Shown: positions 1,187-63,310 of the stretch, one piece after another
How the letters are laid out: each line of letters opens with the position of its first letter
How positions within the stretch are numbered: the stretch's first letter is position 1
Notes under the pieces: generated by a model
Database searches by the model: none
The model's input: the letters and a program-made list of their open reading frames with translations, nothing else
What the model was told of the DNA's origin: nothing
Virus record (IMG/VR): IMGVR_UViG_3300046490_000039
Location: 1 to 64,000 of that record
Strand: one strand, 5' to 3'
Length of the DNA stretch: 64,000 nt
DNA from: a virus
Taxonomy: Duplodnaviria > Caudoviricetes
Position numbers and translations under genes: made by a program

Positions 1187-1615
1187 CTACGAGTGGTGGA
1201 CACCACAGCACCCGTGCACCCACTCATAGGAGTCGTTCGCCCACGGAGAGTCAGGATCGGGGTGTCCGATGCCACAGGGACAGGTCCGCTCCATGATTCC
1301 ACGGTCATCCCGCCAGTGTTGCGGGAACGAGCGCATCGAGTGGTCGCTGCGGTTGTGGATCGTGCAGCGCTGGCCCTTGCACAGGGCCGGATCGTGGACG
1401 TTGACCAGGTACCGATCGCTGTGCTCCAGCTTCCATCGGCGGTCACCGTAGGCGCTGTAGTCCTCTCGACCGAGACGCCACCCGTCCAGGAAGTCACCGT
1501 CGAGCACGGGGACGTACCCGAGTAGCGCCAGAGTGAGCCGGGCGACCTCGTAGGTGTTGAATTCCCGGGCATCGTGGGCGTCGGTGGCGGCGACCATCAG
1601 GTCCTTGGCGTTCAC
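1187..1615 (-). CDS. Cys/His-rich hypothetical phage protein
   Basis: HDPALC..CTIH..DH..MERTCPCGIGHPDPD; start overlaps the resolvase stop. Confidence 0.7.
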   Translation of the reverse strand: MNAKDLMVAATDAHDAREFNTYEVARLTLALLGYVPVLDGDFLDGWRLGREDYSAYGDRRWKLEHSDRYLVNVHDPALCKGQRCTIHNRSDHSMRSFPQHWRDDRGIMERTCPCGIGHPDPDSPWANDSYEWVHGCCGVHHS

Positions 1616-2175
1616 TTCAGGCCCTCCCGAGAGATGCAGCGCTGGACGGCGCTCTTGGAGTAGCCGGTGCGCTCCGCAATCTCACGGTGCGAGTAGCCAT
1701 AGCCACGGAGCGTAGCTACCCACTCGCAATCAACCGATGAAGGTTTGCCGAGTACCGTGCCGGAGGCCTTCACGACGGCCAGGCCGTCCTTCGTGCGCTG
1801 GCTGATCATGTTGCGCTCAAACTCAGCGACCGAGGCGAGCACCGAGAACACAAGCTTGCCGATCGGGGTGCTGAAGTCCATGTCGAGATCGAGCACCACG
1901 AGGCGCACGCCCTTGTCCATCAGGTAGCTGGCGGTCTCGACGGCATCGGCCACCGAGCGAGCGAAGCGGTCGAGTTTGGCGACCACGAGCGTATCGCCCT
2001 CACCGAGCGAGTCGATCAGCTCAGTGAAGACCGGCCTCCCAGTCATGTTCTTGCCCGAGGCGTGCTCCACGTGCTCGACGACTGCGGGGAAGCGCAGCTC
2101 GATTGCGAGGCGCTGCGCCGCAATTCCGTTGGTCTGGTCTTCGGTGCTGGTTCGCAGGTACGAGTGTTCGGCCAT
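1612..2175 (-). CDS. Small serine recombinase (resolvase/invertase) with C-terminal HTH
   Basis: YLRTSTEDQ (catalytic Ser), SGK..RP, GDTLVVAKLDRFARS, AEFERNMISQRTKDGL, HTH SHREIAERTGYSKSAV; SD AGGAGAG; promoter TTGACC(2226-2221)-N18-TAGGAT. Confidence 0.93.
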   Translation of the reverse strand: MAEHSYLRTSTEDQTNGIAAQRLAIELRFPAVVEHVEHASGKNMTGRPVFTELIDSLGEGDTLVVAKLDRFARSVADAVETASYLMDKGVRLVVLDLDMDFSTPIGKLVFSVLASVAEFERNMISQRTKDGLAVVKASGTVLGKPSSVDCEWVATLRGYGYSHREIAERTGYSKSAVQRCISREGLK

Positions 2176-2527: not shown

Positions 2528-3625
2528 TCATTGAGCGGTCTCCTCTTCAAGGTTGGTACGGAAGAAATCGAGGTTCTTGACGATGCGTTGGTCGTCGGGG
2601 CTGATAGAGTGCGCCAGCTCTGCCAGCTCGATCGCACGCTCCCTCTTGCCGAGGTGCCACGCTGCGACGGACCCCAGGTCGGCAGCAGCAGATCCCCAGG
2701 CATACGGCTCGGAGAGGTACACAGCGGGTCGCTCGGTCATCGTGAGCGCATGTTCGGCCGCCCAATAGCACTCATCCCAGAGCAGGTGATTGTGGCAGAT
2801 CTGAGCATAGTCGACCCAGGTCTCACGAAGCTCGGGGGCCTCTTCGGTCGCACGGCGTGACCAGCCGATGGCCTCCTCAAAGTCACCCTCACCGAGGCAG
2901 GCCTTCGCTAGATGGCGCATCGAGGCGGCACGCTCGGGGGTCCAGGTGGAGCCTGGTAGCTCGATGTGGCGAGTCAGCTCGACACGAGCCTTTGCCCAGT
3001 CAGCCCGGTAGACGTACTCACGGCCGAGATAGTGCGCTGTGCGGGGATCGTCGGGGCGTTCCTTGGCGGCCAGCTCCAGCAGCGGGAGGTACTGACCCCT
3101 GCTCTTGGAGTTGTCGGCCCAGTGCTCCAGCTTGTGCGTCAGCGTCACGTAGTTGTCGACGGTGCGGTCCTGCGTCAGGGTCTCGTGGACCGGATGAATC
3201 CACCGGTACCCACGACGGGAGTGCACACGGTCGGCCCAGAACGAGATGCCCGGCGAACCGTCAGGTTCGTGGTTCCAGACGTAGAAGTACCGGCCACGGG
3301 TGTGCACGGCCGGGTCCCATACGGCACGGAGCTTCAGCGCCCACCCAGGCTCCAGCACCTCGTCGAGGTCAACGACCACGCACACGTCCACCCACGCCGG
3401 GATCAGCGCCAGTGCGGCGTTCCGGGCGTCGTCGAATCGCCACGGCTGAATCGAGATCTGGTGCACGCTAGCACCATGCAAGCGAAGCTTCTGTACCGTG
3501 GCGTCGGTTGAGCCGGTGTCGGCCACCACCACGATGTCGGCCTCGCTAGCGTTCTCCATGAAGCGATCGACGAACCGCTCCTCGTTCAGGGAGATGGCGT
3601 AGACGGCGATACGTGCAGGCTGCAT
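2528..3625 (-). CDS. Glycosyltransferase family 2 with C-terminal TPR repeats
   Basis: YAISLNEE, VADTGSTD, RFDDARNAAL, DLDE, HPVHE, YLGRE and TPR-like helices; leaderless TACTCT-N6-ATG. Confidence 0.9.
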   Translation of the reverse strand: MQPARIAVYAISLNEERFVDRFMENASEADIVVVADTGSTDATVQKLRLHGASVHQISIQPWRFDDARNAALALIPAWVDVCVVVDLDEVLEPGWALKLRAVWDPAVHTRGRYFYVWNHEPDGSPGISFWADRVHSRRGYRWIHPVHETLTQDRTVDNYVTLTHKLEHWADNSKSRGQYLPLLELAAKERPDDPRTAHYLGREYVYRADWAKARVELTRHIELPGSTWTPERAASMRHLAKACLGEGDFEEAIGWSRRATEEAPELRETWVDYAQICHNHLLWDECYWAAEHALTMTERPAVYLSEPYAWGSAAADLGSVAAWHLGKRERAIELAELAHSISPDDQRIVKNLDFFRTNLEEETAQ

Positions 3626-3651: not shown

Positions 3652-5220
3652 CTATTGGCCGAGGGACTTGTGAGCACGCTCGATCACGGTCTGCGCCCTC
3701 TTCGACGGTTCGCTCGTCAGGAAGCCCTTGCCCTTGCCCTGATCGTACGGTACTGGCGTGTGAAACTGTGAGGCGGTCGGATCGAGTACCTTACCGGACT
3801 TGTTGCGGAGGTACCAGTGCGGTGACCCCTCGTGCCGAATGAACATCGGCGTGTAGCCGGACGCCTTTCCACCGAGCATGTGATACACGGCCTCGGCCGC
3901 CACGTAGCAGTGCCCGGCCATCGGATCGCTCGACCCCTTCCACGGTGCACGGCGAAGCGAATCGTCGAGCGCACCCTGCACGGCGTGGACCACGGTGGTG
4001 CCCGGCGTCGAGCCTCCACGACCGCCACTCTTCGGCGGGCGGCACGCTGCCGAGTAGCACGCTGCCACGAGCGGCTCGATCAGCGGCTCACCGAACTCGT
4101 CCACGATCTCGTCGACAGCGGCGTGGACAGGTACCCAGTCACGGGTTGCGTCGATATCGCCGTCCTCGGCGGGCAGGTGCTCGGTCATGGTGAAGCTCTC
4201 TCCAAAGTTGATCGTGATGCTAGCAGTGATCGGGGTCCGTGTCAAGTAGAAGTCGCCGGACCAGTCGGCACCGAGCAGCATTTCCTTGCCGGGCCACGTC
4301 TCGTAGGCGGGGCGATAGACCGTGGCCTCTTTCGTGAAGTTGTGGGCACCCTCACCGAGCGATGCGATGTGCACCGGCTGAATGTCCTCACCGTCCTTCG
4401 ACGCCTTGAGCAGTGCATCCAGTTTGCGGTTCAGATCGTGGTAGGCCTCGGGCGTGATCTCCCCCCGCTGCATCATCTGGTCGAGACGCATGCCAGCACG
4501 GGACCCGAGACCGAGGATCGCCTGGTGCCGGGTCTCCCCTCGCTGATCGTCGATCCGGAACCCAGCGGCGGCCCAGGCGTACCCACCCACTGAGGCCCCG
4601 GCGTCCACGTGCACGTGGTCCACTCCCCACTTCTGGTATTGCTCCATCGAATGGGCGTTCAGGGCTTGGGCGATCCCCTTCCCCTGGGCTGAATCGTCGA
4701 GATACATCTCCTCGTGCCACACCACGATCCTCTCCGGGTCTACGCTGATGCTCCGCTCAAAGGACCCGACCTTCCTTCCAGCCAGCGTACGAATCTCCCC
4801 GGTCACGTAGAAGCTGTCGCCGGTCCGAGCGCTATCGAGGTTAGTGATCTTGTATCCACCGGGGAGAGTGGCGTCATACCACGATCCGATGAACTTCTCG
4901 GCCCGGATGCTAGCTCTCTCGCTGTCATCACCGGGGATGTCGAGAGCGTCCATGGTGTTATGGGTCAGCTTGTGGAAGGCCGCAATGGGGCGGTCCTCAC
5001 CTCGCTCTCGTGGTGCCGACATCCCTGGGAAACCGGCGTGGCTTGCCTTACGGGACCCACCCGTCCCGCCCGACGTGGGCGGCCGACAGGATGCGTCGTG
5101 ACACGCAGCGACCAGAGCGTCGAGATCGAATCCTGACTGGCCGTTCAGGATATAGACGGGACGGCCGCTCGTTGTCGTGAAGGTTCGCACCTCCGACACC
5201 ACTCGCACCTCTGTCGTCAT
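3652..5220 (-). CDS. Twice-tagged multidomain protein: GNAT-like domain plus papain/transglutaminase-like domain
   Basis: LVAACHDASCRPPTSGGTGGS, then QGKGIA...VGGYAWAAAGF (GNAT-like); LVAACYSAACRPPKSGGRGGS, then GHCY..HWYL..LDPT (C/H/D); leaderless TAGGAT-N6-ATG. Confidence 0.7.
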   Translation of the reverse strand: MTTEVRVVSEVRTFTTTSGRPVYILNGQSGFDLDALVAACHDASCRPPTSGGTGGSRKASHAGFPGMSAPRERGEDRPIAAFHKLTHNTMDALDIPGDDSERASIRAEKFIGSWYDATLPGGYKITNLDSARTGDSFYVTGEIRTLAGRKVGSFERSISVDPERIVVWHEEMYLDDSAQGKGIAQALNAHSMEQYQKWGVDHVHVDAGASVGGYAWAAAGFRIDDQRGETRHQAILGLGSRAGMRLDQMMQRGEITPEAYHDLNRKLDALLKASKDGEDIQPVHIASLGEGAHNFTKEATVYRPAYETWPGKEMLLGADWSGDFYLTRTPITASITINFGESFTMTEHLPAEDGDIDATRDWVPVHAAVDEIVDEFGEPLIEPLVAACYSAACRPPKSGGRGGSTPGTTVVHAVQGALDDSLRRAPWKGSSDPMAGHCYVAAEAVYHMLGGKASGYTPMFIRHEGSPHWYLRNKSGKVLDPTASQFHTPVPYDQGKGKGFLTSEPSKRAQTVIERAHKSLGQ

Positions 5221-5229
5221 GGCCCTATC

Positions 5230-5910
5230 CTAGTGGGTCGGCATGCCGGGGATGTCAGCGATGCGGACCTTCAGCGCAGAGTTGTCATTGCCGAGAGCGT
5301 AGTGCATGGCCATCCGGTGGTGCCCGTCGTAGACCATGTACGTGTTCTTGGCGACCCTCACGAGCTGAGGCTCGTAGCCTTCCCGGAGCGGCTCACCGTC
5401 CAGCACCTTGCGGATGTGCTTGGTCTTCACCACTTTCTCGGTGGCGATCAGCTTGGCACCCTTCGGCAGGGTAGTGACCGGCGTGTTCTCCCAGTCGTGC
5501 TTGGCGGCCAGCGCCCGGCCCTTCGACACCATCTCGGCCGATCCGTGGACCATGCCCATCTTCGCCGTCGAGACGGTCTCGCCCGTGCCGAGGCCAGCGT
5601 GGCCACGGTCGCTGCCCTGGCCGAGCTGGGCACGGCGGCGTGTGTTCATAGCCTTCACCTGCGCCGTCCTCGTCCTGACGTGTCGAGCGGCCTGATCAGC
5701 TCCCGACATCCCCCGTGAGTTGCCTTTCTCGTCGAAGACCCAGTGGAAGCCGGGGTGCTTGACTGACGGGATCGAGTGCGGGCGTCCGAGGCGTGCCGGG
5801 TCGGCAACCCCCTCGGCGGCTGGACCACCGGGGGCGGCGAACCCCCCGCTAGATCCGCCGTGCCCGGCAGGAGGTGGAGCGCACGCTGCCGAGTGGCAGG
5901 CGAAGACCAC
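5230..5910 (-). CDS. Tagged ParB/Sulfiredoxin-like domain protein (start uncertain, 5910 or 5946)
   Basis: VFACHSAACAPPPAGHGGS tag; C-terminal YMVYDGHHRMA motif. Confidence 0.7.
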   Translation of the reverse strand: MVFACHSAACAPPPAGHGGSSGGFAAPGGPAAEGVADPARLGRPHSIPSVKHPGFHWVFDEKGNSRGMSGADQAARHVRTRTAQVKAMNTRRRAQLGQGSDRGHAGLGTGETVSTAKMGMVHGSAEMVSKGRALAAKHDWENTPVTTLPKGAKLIATEKVVKTKHIRKVLDGEPLREGYEPQLVRVAKNTYMVYDGHHRMAMHYALGNDNSALKVRIADIPGMPTH

Positions 5911-5923
5911 GGTGCTCGTGGTC

Positions 5924-6124
5924 CTACAGACGTTCGACAGAGCCATGCTCACCCAGCAGGAGACCGAGCGCATCGGGATCTTCCTCCCACTCGCCCTCTC
6001 CACCCCACTTCACGAAGATGTACGTGCCGTCATCGGCAGCACGGTACTCGACCTTCACGAGCGCAACGGTATCCCCGTTGCCTCGATCAGTGATCTTGTA
6101 CTCTCCCTCTAGTCCTATGGTCAT
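5924..6124 (-). CDS. Small acidic protein, possible antitoxin/immunity partner
   Basis: 66 aa, untagged, purine-rich SD, directly downstream of the RelA/SpoT-like gene. Confidence 0.6.
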   Translation of the reverse strand: MTIGLEGEYKITDRGNGDTVALVKVEYRAADDGTYIFVKWGGEGEWEEDPDALGLLLGEHGSVERL

Positions 6125-6135
6125 CTCTTCCTCTC

Positions 6136-6816
6136 TCAGGCTGCGGGCCTGAATACCTTTGTACCTAGACCCGTGGCACCCTTCGGTACCTTGGCGTGGT
6201 CAGCGATCTCGACCATCTTCTTCGTGAGCATCGTGCGTTCCTGCGGGGTCGTTGTAGCCTGACGGGCCTTCTCGTATATCGGGTGCGTCAGAGCCTTCGC
6301 CCGAAGTGAGTCTACCGTGTGAAACTGAATCTCCACCTTCGCACCGTTCGGGTGCCGGGCGATCATGTGCACGCCGTTGTAGGCGTCACCACGCTGCCAG
6401 TGCGTCTCCAGCTCCTCGATCTTGAATCCTTGCTTCTCCAGCGCCTTCCTGGTAGACTTCACGGCCGCTGTGTACTTGGAGCTGTGCAGGACCGCCGTGT
6501 AGCGCAGAGCATCGGGGATGGCGTTGGCCGACTCCGCCATGCTCTGGTGTCTCTGGAGCGCCTTGTCGTGGATCTTGCGGGTGAGCGAGTCGATACCCTT
6601 CACACGGTGCGTCAGACCGACCAGAGCGCCTCCCTGGTCGAGTACGGTCGAGCGAAGCGTGTCGGTCACACCCTTCTCGATGGCCACTGCATGATCATGC
6701 ACGGCGATGGCCTGCCTTCGGGCCTCGTGCCCCGCCTTCGTCGATCCGCCCTTCCCGGCCGGGGGAGGGGCGCACGCCTTCGTGTAGCAGGCGAACGTCT
6801 GTGCAGTGAGTCTCAC
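6136..6816 (-). CDS. Tagged RelA/SpoT-like nucleotidyltransferase (small alarmone synthetase-like)
   Basis: TFACYTKACAPPPAGKGGS tag; HRVKGIDSLTRKI, DALRYT, YNGVH, VEIQFHT; GTG start 4 nt after the upstream stop. Confidence 0.78.
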   Translation of the reverse strand: MRLTAQTFACYTKACAPPPAGKGGSTKAGHEARRQAIAVHDHAVAIEKGVTDTLRSTVLDQGGALVGLTHRVKGIDSLTRKIHDKALQRHQSMAESANAIPDALRYTAVLHSSKYTAAVKSTRKALEKQGFKIEELETHWQRGDAYNGVHMIARHPNGAKVEIQFHTVDSLRAKALTHPIYEKARQATTTPQERTMLTKKMVEIADHAKVPKGATGLGTKVFRPAA

Positions 6817-6820
6817 TGGA

Positions 6821-7339
6821 TCAGCCGTTCCAGTGCGTGCGGTTCCTGGTAGCTCCACCGGGGATTCTCCGTGAGACGGCACGGTCCTTGAGAGCGTCAT
6901 ACCCGTCGTCACTCCCAGCGGGCTTCATGGGCCGACGTTCCGCTGCGGCCAGCCGATCGTACGAGTCGAGCGCCAGCTTAGCTTGAATGTTCTTGGTCGC
7001 CTTCAGCCGAGACGCCTCGTACGGGTTTCGTGACGCCTTGGCGGCGAGACGATTACCTTCCTGATACACGTGAGCCTTGCTATCGAACACGTGCCGATCC
7101 CCGGCGTCACCCTCGGCGGACATCTTCCCGTCCGAGTGAAGCTTCACGGTCTTGGCCATTTCCTTGTAGTTCGGCGGGCCACCCGCTAGAGCACCGCTCG
7201 CCCCGCCACGGCCGCCGCCAGAGGCGTAACCCTTCTGCCCACCACCGCCACCGCTACCGCCCGAGCCACCACTTCCCGGAGGACGACAAGCTGCCGAGTG
7301 ACAGGCAAACACCTCTGCGGAAACCTTCAACACGGCCAT
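6821..7339 (-). CDS. Tagged protein with Gly-rich linker and unknown C-terminal domain
   Basis: VFACHSAACRPPGSGGSGGS; leaderless TAGGAT-N6-ATG. Confidence 0.7.
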   Translation of the reverse strand: MAVLKVSAEVFACHSAACRPPGSGGSGGSGGGGGQKGYASGGGRGGASGALAGGPPNYKEMAKTVKLHSDGKMSAEGDAGDRHVFDSKAHVYQEGNRLAAKASRNPYEASRLKATKNIQAKLALDSYDRLAAAERRPMKPAGSDDGYDALKDRAVSRRIPGGATRNRTHWNG

Positions 7340-7364
7340 GGCTTGATCCTAGCAGGGGTGACCA

Positions 7365-7413
7365 TAGAAACGAAACAGCTCCCCCACCGGTTCCGGATGG
7401 CGAGGGAGCTGTT
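7365..7413 (-). terminator. Intrinsic terminator
   Basis: AAACAGCTCCC...GGGAGCTGTTT stem followed by CGTTTCT on the minus strand. Confidence 0.7.
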
Positions 7414-7590
7414 TGGACCGTCGTCCGGGGACCTAAGGCGGTTCCCATAGCCTGATCAGTTGGTCACGGGCTGATCTCCCGGCGAGAAGATTCGCATGCT
7501 CACGGATGCGTCCAGCCTTTGGGTCTAGGGCGCTGGCGTCCCTCCGGTTATGTACGCTTGCCGGACTGCGACCGCTCCGTCGAGCGATGA
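7365..7590 (-). ncRNA. Candidate ~220-nt multi-hairpin small RNA
   Basis: Own promoter TTGACC(7624-7619)-N18-TAGAGT(7600-7595), about 8 consecutive short hairpins, terminator, no start codon near the predicted TSS. Confidence 0.5.
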
Positions 7591-7970: not shown

Positions 7971-8576
7971 TCAAGGGGTCGGTTGGTCGTGGCACGGGCA
8001 CTCGCACGTACCCCATCTTTCGCAGCATCCGCCACAGTTCTCGTAGTCGCACGGGCCGTACAGGTAGCCGTCCACGCAGCACACGTAGTCGTCGAGCCAC
8101 TCGTCGGAGCAGGCGTCACACTTGGTCTGCCTAGGCTCCACGCTGCACCATCTCGTGTCGGTGGTCGGGTGAGTCAGCGCAAGTGCCACGATCGGTGTGC
8201 GACGAGCACCACGCACACTCGATGTCGTGCTCGTCGCAGCCGGGCTGTACGTGGAGCGTGTCGACGTACTCGTTGGAGTAGTACACGCAGCCACAAGTGA
8301 GCAGTTGTCCCGTCGTCACAGCAGGTCCGCCCTCCGTAGCTCAGCGATCGAGCACTCTTCGCCCGGAGCGGGCGGGGTCGTTTGGAGCGCCTGGCGGCCC
8401 TTGCCGTTGTCGGGACCGGCCGTCGTACGGCGCAAGAGGCTGCCGAGGTTCCGGGTGATGGCGTCAGCGAACGCCTGCGCTCGACGCTCCTCGACAGGGG
8501 TGAGGCGCAGGCGTGCGTCGAGCGTACGCTGGCGGGCCTCGGCAAGGCGCTGGGCTTGGATCTCAGTGAAGGTCAC
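7971..8576 (-). CDS. Three small overlapping ORFs (7971-8141, 8131-8319, 8316-8576), two of them very Cys-rich
   Basis: Overlapping starts and stops; promoter TTGACT-N17-TAGGAT-N6-GTG at 8576. Confidence 0.55.
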
Positions 8577-9475
8577 GACTCGATCCTACTCTCTCCCCTC
8601 GGGAAAGTCAACATCTGATCGTCGAGAGCGGCCGACCTCTCCGACGCTCGGGCGAGATTAGCGAACGCTCGGGCCAGCCGGTCCTCGGTGGTCCCCTGGA
8701 GCTGAGCGAAACGGTCGGTGATCGCCTGATCGTAGGCCTCGACGATGTGAGCAACGTACGCCTGGATCTGCGGGTTGCGGACACGCTGCGCCGTGGTGGG
8801 AGCGATATGCTGGATATAGAGCAGCTCCGGAATGTGGAGCAGGTTCGTGTAGAGGAACGTCCGCACGTGGAGCTGGTAGTCGTCGCACACCTCGTACCGG
8901 GTGTCGTGCCCACCCATCTCGTGGTAGGTGGAGGCACGCCACGCCCGGAGATGGTTCGGGGATGACACGATGTGGCGGACCGTGGTCGAGTTGACCTCGG
9001 CGGTGCCCATGTAGTACATCTCCCGGGTCGGGTCGTAGAGGGTCTTGCCGTAGCCGAACGCCCACCCGTCAGGGTAGAAGGTCGAGGCTCCGTCAGGGAG
9101 GATCTCGGCCCAGTCCGAGTACACGAACCCCACGTCCGGGTGATCGGTGAAGGCGGCGTGGACCCTGGCGAGAGCCTCGGGGAGCAGCTCGTCGTCGTGG
9201 TCCAGCTCGACCAGGATACTGCCCTCGGCCAGCATGAAGGCCCGGCGCTTGTTGAGGCCGATCGAGCCGGAATGGAGCACCGGGTCCGAGCGGAAGGGCT
9301 TGACACGAGGGTCCTTGAGTGCTAGGGACTGAAGGAGCGGCCACGTAGCGTGGGAGGTCGAATCGTCGAGAATGATCCACTCGTCGAACGGGTGGGTCTG
9401 GGATGTGAGCGAGCGGTACGCCCGGTCCAGTTGGTCCGGTGTCGTGTTGAAGGTCGGGGTGCAGATCGAGATCAT
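8573..9475 (-). CDS. Glycosyltransferase family 2
   Basis: ISICTPTFNT, EWIILDDS, ELDHDDEL, VGFVYSD, GGHD..CDDY. Confidence 0.88.
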   Translation of the reverse strand: MISICTPTFNTTPDQLDRAYRSLTSQTHPFDEWIILDDSTSHATWPLLQSLALKDPRVKPFRSDPVLHSGSIGLNKRRAFMLAEGSILVELDHDDELLPEALARVHAAFTDHPDVGFVYSDWAEILPDGASTFYPDGWAFGYGKTLYDPTREMYYMGTAEVNSTTVRHIVSSPNHLRAWRASTYHEMGGHDTRYEVCDDYQLHVRTFLYTNLLHIPELLYIQHIAPTTAQRVRNPQIQAYVAHIVEAYDQAITDRFAQLQGTTEDRLARAFANLARASERSAALDDQMLTFPRGESRIES

Positions 9476-9688
9476 CACTGCGGAGTGCTTCCTTTGGTAC
9501 TTTGGTCTAAACCTAGACCGGTGTAGGGGTAGTTGGGGTGGTGGCACCGCTTCGCCATGTCTGCCGTCGCCAGCACGGACTCCACCATCACCGTGCCCGT
9601 CCCCGTGCAGTGGCGAGCGACTTCCACGCATGGGCTGCACGGGCTGTATCAGCCGTCACCTTGGCGTAGACGGTAGGGAGGTCGGCGG

Positions 9689-63232: not shown

Positions 63233-63310
63233 AAGGCAATCTTAGCGGCGAGGTATTCCCCCCGATGACGACACTCGGATGTCTGTGCTAAGCTCCGCCG
63301 ACTCGATCGG

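Follow-up and report, generated by a model that had tools for sequence, protein, structure and literature searches.

The window, which is the whole 64,000-nucleotide stretch that was analysed, belongs to the 97.9-kb genome of an uncultured, actinobacterial phage of the ~100-kb size. Its minus strand carries a cassette of four genes marked by a short peptide, here called the tag; this peptide of 20–30 residues, with a two-cysteine loop, precedes each of many toxin-like enzyme modules. The cassette comprises the following features:

7373–7414, minus strand: ahead of the cassette, a hairpin (inverted repeat I15, 16-nt arms, 88% complementary) and then a T-rich run
7346–7352, minus strand: −10 box of the leaderless type; the ATG of tagged gene 1 lies 6 nt downstream (motif search)
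6821–7339, minus strand: tagged gene 1, 172 aa (ORF and translation); N-terminal tag (core 7253–7310), Gly-rich linker and a ~120-aa module, function not assigned
6136–6816, minus strand: tagged gene 2; N-terminal tag (core 6742–6796) and a RelA/SpoT-like small alarmone synthetase or pyrophosphokinase module
5924–6124, minus strand: untagged acidic 66-aa ORF, next after the RelA-like gene and preceded by a strong ribosome-binding site
5230–5946, minus strand: tagged gene 3; N-terminal tag (core 5849–5906) and a conserved ~95-aa C-terminal domain with an Asp-Gly-His-His-Arg motif
3652–5220, minus strand: two-module gene, 522 aa; 39-aa leader, tag (core 5050–5116), GNAT-like module, second tag (core 4007–4072) and YunG-family module

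All five tag copies reported by the initial annotation are present at their places on the minus strand, with the Ala-Cys..Pro-Pro core at 7277–7306, 6763–6792, 5872–5901, 5077–5106 and 4033–4062, and a strict pattern of the tag matches 5 times in the window against 0.000 expected (200 shuffles). The accompanying claim that no copy occurs elsewhere holds for the window but not for the whole genome, where four further copies lie on the same strand, giving nine copies across seven genes. Two of these four belong to one 600-aa DUF7178 protein encoded just upstream of the large terminase, the other two to ORFs of 108 and 192 aa on either side of a ribonucleotide reductase. Given the likely starts (7339, GTG at 6816 and ATG at 5946; the longest ORFs of tagged genes 2 and 3 extend to 6912 and 6003), three of the four genes of the window cassette have their tag within 10–17 residues of the N-terminus.

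Between pairs of the five window copies, a fraction of 0.30–0.90 of the residues is identical, but only 0.35–0.75 of the bases. Identical residues are mostly encoded differently, including switches between the two serine codon families. This comparison confirms the earlier observation that the DNA has diverged while the peptide is conserved, and because codons vary freely between copies, selection acts on the peptide.

A −10 box identical to that of tagged gene 1 is found at 5227–5233, 6 nt ahead of the ATG of the 522-aa gene. Genome-wide, the arrangement of box, 6 nt and start codon occurs 10 times against 0.6 expected; four of the ten matches are tagged genes and the others lie in the structural region. 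The hairpin with its T-rich run is terminator-like, and the cassette therefore seems to begin its own transcription unit. Its neighbours are glycosyltransferases and a resolvase. An invertible or shuffling DNA segment tied to this resolvase was considered and dropped, as convincing inverted repeats were not found.

The modules differ from gene to gene. Tagged gene 1 has no Pfam or PHROG match, and its module has one homologue, inside another tagged protein. For tagged gene 2, the RelA/SpoT-like assignment is borne out by PF04607 (E 0.0018), PDB entry 8vx3 (1.5e-16) and the C-terminus of phrog_7625 (positions 317–495; 3.8e-27). This module also matches C-termini of MuF head-morphogenesis proteins of cultured Streptococcus, Pasteurella and Haemophilus phages, in agreement with the initial statement that RelA-like domains occur as MuF cargo. 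The adjacent 66-aa ORF, which has no family match, is a candidate immunity or antitoxin partner. In three other contigs the RelA-like module is likewise followed by a homologue of this ORF (41% identity), and the other modules of the cassette are without such a small partner ORF. Homologues of the module of tagged gene 3 occur in 9 other tagged proteins. Its C-terminal domain is possibly ParB/Srx-like, as hinted by the Gly-His-His-Arg motif and a weak Atlas lead to ParB; the AlphaFold model is poor (pLDDT 48) and a PDB sequence search returned no match. In the 522-aa protein, the GNAT-like assignment comes from a weak match (E 0.019), and the module recurs in at least 14 tagged proteins and in the C-terminus of gp5 of Microbacterium phage Jera, a head protein. 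The YunG family is matched at 1.2e-5 (29 bits, above cut-off). We rejected this domain, described at first as a papain-like Cys-His-Asp enzyme, as a dedicated tag peptidase: it occurs in the source genome only and is absent from the complete relative G001. An Ile-Thr-Ala-Ser site lies ~55 aa ahead of the second tag. Pfam and PHROG searches found a MuF domain in none of the four window ORFs.

Conservation and placement of the tag

In a profile search, 439 protein clusters match the tag, all of them metagenomic. The same search gave no match in 50,697 GenBank phages, at E values up to 10, and one MAG scaffold was found among 185,579 species genomes. The longer tag-bearing contigs all belong to one phage family. 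Three small tagged proteins have no family match in Pfam or PHROG, and a motif related to the tag was not found among solved structures.

The tag has a fixed order: a short segment that always ends in Ala, a Cys-x4-Cys-x-Pro-Pro loop, a flexible Gly-x-x-Gly-Gly/Ser-Ser linker and then the cargo domain. Across 292 tags, Ala-1, Cys0, Cys5, Pro7, Pro8, Gly11 and Gly14 are invariant or nearly so, both cysteines without a single exception. The first Cys is usually followed by His or Tyr, with 13 tags showing an additional His-x-His a short way upstream. Two settings recur, namely the extreme N-terminus of small proteins and the junctions between modules of giant polyproteins: 104 tags begin 6–17 residues from the N-terminus of otherwise unrelated proteins, and the remaining 188 are internal. 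Polyproteins hold up to 7 tags at a spacing of 200–300 residues (4–7 tags in the 1,420–2,249 residues of P0001–P0008), and it is at the tags that cargo modules shuffle between stand-alone genes and polyproteins, and between genomes. The initially noted design of conserved leader and variable enzyme thus extends to all 439 clusters, including these polyproteins. AlphaFold, run on 23 aligned tags, gave no fold (pLDDT 62), and in a model of a 238-aa protein the tag region scored ~30 and was not docked on the module. The absence of a predicted fold is as expected for a linear motif on a flexible linker.

A protease-type motif at the tags

A motif of the type Val/Ile/Thr-Thr/Val-Ala↓Ser/Ala (the arrow marks the putative cut) lies inside, or within 14 residues upstream of, about half of the internal tags; the other half, roughly, has no recognisable copy. 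The motif lies 2–14 residues upstream of 25% of internal tags, compared with 2.2% of background windows, and overlaps the tag in a further 42 of 186. The same Val/Thr-Ala↓Ser motif is found at the delta-domain boundary of the capsid protein, where it is conserved in five family members and two cultured relatives, at the N-terminus of MuF, and in the tail of the protease, where it is likewise conserved after the protease domain. In its strict form it occurs only three times in the proteome of the source phage: in the capsid protein, in MuF and in one tagged protein. Position and conservation of this short motif suggest a putative prohead-protease site. The best candidate for the cut is mostly Thr/Val-Ala↓Ser ~10 residues upstream of the first Cys, or an overlapping Leu-Val-Ala-Ala. 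Of the two cleavage sites proposed at first, after Phe-Ala or Leu-Val-Ala-Ala, the former is hence not general, while the latter survives as the overlapping form among the best candidates.

Cargo, MuF fusions and genomic setting

The domain census (18 Pfam families matched by 70 tagged proteins) agrees with the earlier view of the cargo as toxin- or effector-type domains; it includes DUF3626 (SopF family) and DRAT ADP-ribosyltransferases, MazF, GNAT, zeta toxin, PARP and RelA. Three clusters, P0013, P0121 and P0142, are MuF homologues fused to tag and cargo, with 47–57% identity to MuF of the source phage. The latter, 504 aa long, is encoded separately and has a ParB-like C-terminus of its own, which recurs elsewhere as a tagged module.

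Within the packaging and head region, several tagged genes have conserved positions, the sequence of genes being dNMP kinase, tag, TerL, DUF7218, tag, RNR, tag(s), portal. One tagged gene directly follows the protease gene. For many others, including the large polyproteins and the window cassette, the neighbours are not those of the head module but a DNA polymerase, glycosyltransferase clusters, ArdA or a resolvase; the large polyproteins adjoin genes for DNA polymerase, primase-helicase, ArdA and methyltransferase.

Discussion

The reading that we put first, and to which we give an even chance, sees in the tag a modular peptide, placed at junctions or as a leader, which marks effector or toxin modules that would be carried with the head. 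In this reading, the family bearing it consists of uncultured, ~100-kb, actinophage-like siphoviruses. We infer packaging in the capsid, cleavage and injection from gene content and motifs, as follows. The procapsid would take up tagged proteins, polyproteins among them and some joined to the portal-associated MuF, and there the prohead protease would cut them at the junction motif, as it would at the capsid delta boundary, the MuF N-terminus and its own tail. Each enzyme would then become a separate molecule with the cysteine loop kept at its new N-terminus, and would exit with the DNA into the next cell. The loop itself may, at a guess, serve docking, retention or release via metal or disulfide.

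Packaged, protease-cut cargo is partially supported by the shared motif, the MuF fusions and the toxin-like cargo, and is also favoured by the leaderless promoter box common to tagged genes and genes of the structural region. The location of many tagged genes outside the head module speaks against it. The initial proposal of a head-packaging and maturation signal gains from the leader design, the toxin cargo, the MuF fusions and the linked motif, but not in the sense of a sole packaging address, which the tag is unlikely to be because it is kept in MuF fusions, where targeting is already provided. Moreover, packaged cargo leaves the invariance of two Cys and two Pro unaccounted for.

Alternatively, the tag could be a processing junction of cytoplasmic polyproteins of host-takeover or anti-defence enzymes, cut by a phage or host peptidase and never packaged. 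The DNA polymerase, primase-helicase, ArdA and methyltransferase genes, rather than head genes, that flank the large polyproteins fit such a role, as does the position of the window cassette between glycosyltransferases and a resolvase, and the regular, bead-like spacing of tags would suit any polyprotein processing. Yet stand-alone genes, which need no cutting, retain the whole tag; MuF fusions exist, and tagged proteins and MuF have cargo in common; the linked motif is the one at the maturation positions of capsid, MuF and protease; and no dedicated peptidase co-occurs, with no Pfam peptidase family among those matched by the 70 tagged proteins. We thus hold this alternative to be unlikely.

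Another explanation has the cysteine loop control the toxins, either as a latch that senses metal or redox state or by oligomerisation, for instance by keeping them inactive until they reach a reducing cytoplasm, with cleavage and capsid loading secondary or absent. It would account for the two cysteines invariant in 292 of 292 tags, for the usual His or Tyr after the first and the occasional His-x-His, for cargo that is toxic and would need control, and for the tag being kept in MuF fusions. However, a single short peptide is unlikely to govern a dozen folds that are unrelated, in the AlphaFold model it is not docked on its module, solved structures hold no related motif, and both the linked Ala↓Ser motif and the bead spacing are left unexplained, so that we consider a latch quite improbable.

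The exchange of modules at the tags, from gene to gene and genome to genome, might also suggest a functionless recombination joint or linker left by cassette shuffling. Here the DNA of the copies is only 35–75% identical with synonymous change saturated, and seven residues are invariant across 292 copies; since a joint at the DNA level would predict the reverse of diverged DNA and invariant peptide, we regard it as very improbable. A lipoprotein-type lipobox or secretion signal, suggested by the hydrophobic residues and Ala before the first Cys, is extremely improbable and was rejected on position and composition, as 188 of 292 copies are internal, N-terminal copies lack a hydrophobic core and have just 5–16 residues, mostly polar ones, ahead of the Cys, and the cargo domains act on cytoplasmic targets.

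As an extension of packaged cargo, we tentatively suggest, with more doubt than belief, that proteins carry in the cysteine loop a portable label for "address and release": a metal or disulfide clasp would dock any enzyme to a procapsid partner and release it in the reducing cytoplasm of the next host, while cargo strings would be divided into units by the head protease at the adjoining motif. Such a label would amount to a plug-and-play protein-delivery code of one phage family, transferable to any cargo. Throughout an uncultured phage family, hundreds of toxin-like modules bear this small and sharply conserved peptide, which is linked to MuF and a protease-type motif. If it does mark packaged cargo, injected effectors could be recognised in metagenomes by a sequence rule, the tagged modules would form a natural catalogue of toxins, and possibly anti-defence enzymes, that phages deliver, and the compact tag could be tested for loading foreign proteins into capsids.

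How head-carried, injected proteins are chosen is known in detail for very few phages, such as T4 with its targeting sequence, P1 with Dar, N4 and phiKZ-like phages. The T4 capsid-targeting sequence is carried by the internal proteins IPI–III and Alt and removed by the gp21 prohead protease. Like it, the tag is a short N-terminal peptide on unrelated proteins, paired with a capsid-maturation-type motif, the cut site here being putative. Unlike it, the tag is unrelated in sequence, is also used internally in polyproteins, has invariant cysteines and prolines, and would probably leave its conserved part on the cargo after cutting; its role in packaging is putative. The invariant cysteines and prolines point to a chemistry (metal, disulfide or recognition that depends on proline) of which, to our knowledge, no counterpart has been described for signals that load capsids. 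In MARTX toxins and phiKZ ejection proteins, one protease acts at repeated short motifs and frees several effector units from large precursors. Ejection proteins of the giant phage SPN3US are reported to be processed at repeated sites (PMC7411985). The likeness lies in several effector units within large precursors with repeated short motifs; those systems have other proteases and other motifs, and are not known to have a conserved cysteine-loop peptide on each unit.

In the MuF polymorphic toxins of temperate phages, variable toxin domains, RelA-like ones included, are borne on a head protein (Jamet et al. 2017, PMC5576092; Apk domains, PMC12226406), usually followed by a small ORF (PMC5576092). 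The homology of our RelA-like module to MuF toxin C-termini and the three tagged MuF fusions match this pattern, and the 66-aa ORF behind the module may be a counterpart of that small ORF. In contrast, the window genes lack a MuF domain, the conserved unit is a ~30-residue peptide before every module, and polyproteins reach seven modules; cleavage, proteolysis or linkers are not mentioned in the text of the MuF toxin paper (PMC5576092). Phage-type polyvalent proteins are described as combining RelA/SpoT, ParB-like and ADP-ribosyltransferase effectors in one chain; the prediction is that they are packaged, split into units and brought in along with the DNA, processing being proposed to occur via an embedded zincin-like metallopeptidase (Iyer, Burroughs, Anand, de Souza, Aravind 2017, PMC5512222). 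Their two to fifteen effector domains per polypeptide resemble the two modules of the 522-aa ORF and the 4–7 tags of P0001–P0008. Modules here are instead delimited by a cysteine-loop junction peptide with a prohead-protease-type motif, and the peptide also heads single-module genes. A zincin-like metallopeptidase hub was found neither by Pfam in the five polyproteins of greatest length nor in the set of 18 families matched by the 70 tagged proteins, although Pfam may miss divergent forms.

The idea that the tag forms a zinc clasp with an acidic Cys-x-Cys of the protease tail was also considered, and was rejected for want of specific co-occurrence. The Cys-x-Cys motif is present at the protease in all five tag-bearing phages, and in untagged relatives too (Nicole72, Dulem virus 38 and Pam4), there in a small separate gene after the protease.

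Tag and gene cassette

The window covers the initial 64 kb of one virus contig of 97,902 bp, which is linear in the IMG/VR classification, 88% complete according to CheckV and has a G+C content of about 0.63. Four co-oriented minus-strand genes, running from 7339 to 3652 and showing normal coding statistics (third-position G+C 0.76-0.84), jointly hold five copies of the tag, a short peptide with a Cys-x4-Cys-x-Pro-Pro loop. The initial annotation had claimed both these five copies and the divergence of their DNA, and both are borne out: the window contains 5 matches to the strict pattern whereas 200 shuffles gave none, and the copies have most residues in common while most synonymous positions differ, including serine codons from both families. 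Conservation at the tag is thus at the peptide level, not at that of the DNA. Four further copies, on the same strand as the cassette, lie in the remainder of the genome:

two tags, in the N-terminal part of a DUF7178 protein of 600 aa whose gene directly precedes the large terminase
one tag, start of a 108-aa ORF
one tag, start of a 192-aa ORF, separated from the previous ORF by a class II ribonucleotide reductase

Downstream, the same strand encodes, in this order, the portal, a homologue of the portal-associated head protein MuF with a ParB-like C-terminal domain, the capsid maturation protease and the major capsid protein.

With a profile built from 23 tags, a search of 1.84 billion representative proteins gave 439 matching clusters at E <= 0.001, and 78 at E <= 1e-10. 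Of the top 150 proteins of this search plus the seven of this phage, 81 carry one tag and 76 carry two to seven, the largest proteins (1,420-2,249 residues) having one tag per 200-300 residues. The tag starts 6-17 residues from the N-terminus in 104 of 292 cases and is internal in the other 188. Invariant or nearly so are the two Cys with four residues between them, the Ala that precedes the first, the Pro-Pro two residues after the second and two Gly of the linker that follows. Modules between tags reappear in altered orders and as stand-alone tagged genes, which argues that each tag heads an independent functional unit. AlphaFold predicts no fold in the tag, and the motif is absent from the solved structures searched; an extra His-x-His upstream of 13 tags hints at metal binding.

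Cargo modules

The initial annotation had also named four of the modules behind the window tags, and these identities stand to differing degrees. The RelA/SpoT-like enzyme is well supported by sequence matches; the module read there as papain/transglutaminase-like is supported as a YunG-family domain; the GNAT-like module has a weak direct match and reappears in many tagged proteins; a domain of ~95 residues that contains Gly-His-His-Arg is possibly ParB/Srx-like. The fifth module, in the gene at 6821-7339, matched no Pfam or PHROG family. YunG was rejected as a universal tag-processing enzyme. By their Pfam matches, the modules of 70 other tagged proteins fall into toxin and effector families, which also include PARP, RelA and VapB; a type IB topoisomerase is additionally found in the largest polyproteins.

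Pfam cargo of 70 other tagged proteins (number of tagged proteins)
DUF3626 (family of the Salmonella effector SopF): 12
PemK/MazF: 10
GNAT: 7
Zeta toxin: 4
L5 gp82: 3
DRAT: 3
Poly(A) polymerase-like: 2

In one relative (L044:1260-2615), a homologue of the immunity-like 66-aa ORF that follows the window RelA-like gene shares one open frame with the tagged modules after it, and may be made with them as a single protein.

Distribution and phage family

Scans of IMG/VR by DNA pattern and by peptide found the tag on five other viral contigs. It is absent from the 50,697 GenBank phage records searched and, among 185,579 species genomes, occurs on one MAG scaffold only; the members of ten tag clusters looked up are all unnamed metagenomic proteins, several of them encoded by contigs 99-116 kb long. 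Source samples include the lake and wastewater metagenomes behind the Ga0075163, Ga0075471 and ERZ724509 contigs. Those metagenome loci that are long enough to compare encode a terminase 55-80% identical to that of this phage, share its reductase and dNMP kinase, and have the conserved gene order dNMP kinase, tagged gene, terminase, DUF7218, tagged gene, reductase, tagged gene(s), portal. Because of these common genes and their order, the tag appears to be a hallmark of one uncultured phage family. The capsid protein and protease of this family are 35-40% identical to those of large phages infecting Arthrobacter, Gordonia, Microbacterium and Mycobacterium, so the host is probably an actinobacterium.

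Links to head and protease

Several observations link tagged proteins to the head. In three tag-bearing clusters (P0013, P0121 and P0142), a part 47-57% identical to the MuF of this phage precedes tag and cargo; in three other clusters, the ParB-like C-terminus fused directly to this phage's MuF occurs as a tagged module. The GNAT-like module is similar to the C-terminal part of gp5, a head protein adjoining the portal in Microbacterium phage Jera. DUF7218 and the adjacent 113-aa protein also serve as first modules of tagged proteins, and in one relative the gene right behind that of the protease encodes a tagged basic protein. Four tagged genes also share with structural-region genes a leaderless-type -10 box 6 nt before the start, with the Cys-codon-free consensus C-T-A-R-R-H-T. 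Examples are:

window 5227-5233, -10-like box
window 7346-7352, -10-like box
window 63239-63245, -10-like box

Across the whole genome, the box occurs exactly 6 nt before start codons 10 times versus 0.6 expected. This implies that a set of genes, these four among them, have leaderless transcripts.

A second link is a putative prohead-protease cut motif. As Val/Ile-x-Ala-Ser-Ala, with the supposed cut between Ala and Ser, it stands, in five family members and two cultured relatives, where the acidic N-terminal domain of the capsid protein ends and similarity to other capsids starts; every member and relative examined has a related Leu/Ile-Val/Ile-Ala-Ala/Ser motif after its protease domain. 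The proteome of this phage contains three copies of the strict motif (0.5 expected), one each in the capsid protein, MuF and the tagged 192-aa protein. In tagged proteins the motif is concentrated just ahead of the tags: of 186 internal tags, 42 overlap it in the form Leu-Val-Ala-Ala-Cys and 47 are preceded, at a distance of 2-14 residues (peak at 10), by Thr/Val-Ala-Ser/Ala, which is present in 2.2% of background windows; many of the remainder show near-variants. Ahead of the second tag in the 522-aa window protein stands an Ile-Thr-Ala-Ser site.

Toxin-type cargo, MuF fusions and the motif ahead of tags thus partly support the proposal of the initial annotation that the tagged proteins are packaged, protease-trimmed effectors. 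Against it stands the distance of many tagged genes from the head genes; a purely cytoplasmic role is a less probable alternative. If they are packaged and trimmed, the prohead protease would cut the polyproteins at the tag junctions, and the cysteine loop would remain on the N-terminus of every released module.

Packaged, trimmed effectors with a common leader are already known in principle from three sources, one being the T4 capsid-targeting sequence. The others are MuF polymorphic toxins (PMC5576092) and polyvalent proteins (PMC5512222). The former carry their defining MuF domain within the toxin protein, whereas the window tagged genes, when tested, lacked it; the latter are described as having a metallopeptidase hub, for which Pfam gave no match in the tagged polyproteins scanned. 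We found no earlier description of the cysteine-loop tag itself.

Other observations

The capsid maturation protease of this phage (L001:9987-12158, genome 73987-76158 (-), outside the window) has a complete ferritin/Dps-like domain inserted (PF00210, 1.5e-15), flanked by Leu-Val-Ala-Ala-Gly and Val-Asn-Ala-Ser-Ala motifs and followed by an acidic six-cysteine cluster. Three relatives examined (G001, G002 and G004) have a protease without this insert and keep a Cys-x-Cys or Cys-Cys motif. Cys-x-Cys is fused to the protease tail in the tag-bearing family and starts a tiny protein encoded right after the protease in untagged cultured relatives (L062, Nicole72 gp21; L064, Dulem virus 38; L065, Pam4_14), and constitutes a conserved small head-module element. 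The acidic motif was rejected as a partner of the tag, since phages that lack the tag have it too.

A 261-aa protein encoded between the portal and the tagged 192-aa gene (L002:1242-2027, genome 81242-82027 (-)) combines a signal peptide with a long Thr/Pro/Val-rich repeat region and weakly matches an LPXTG-type cell-wall anchor. About 1.5 kb from the cassette lies a small serine recombinase (window 1612-2175 (-); Resolvase N-terminal domain, 3.6e-35, plus helix-turn-helix), near which no inverted repeats defining an invertible segment were seen; three further contigs (L015, L017 and L035) also have its homologues or other resolvases close to tagged polyproteins. The cassette is flanked by two family-2 glycosyltransferases (window 2528-3625 (-) and 8573-9640 (-)), one of them with TPR repeats (phrog_13126, 6e-104), and tagged genes of other contigs also adjoin glycosyl- and methyltransferase clusters. 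The capsid hexamer and pentamer proteins have C-terminal Gly-Pro-Thr-Gly-Pro tails, which may be glycosylation substrates.
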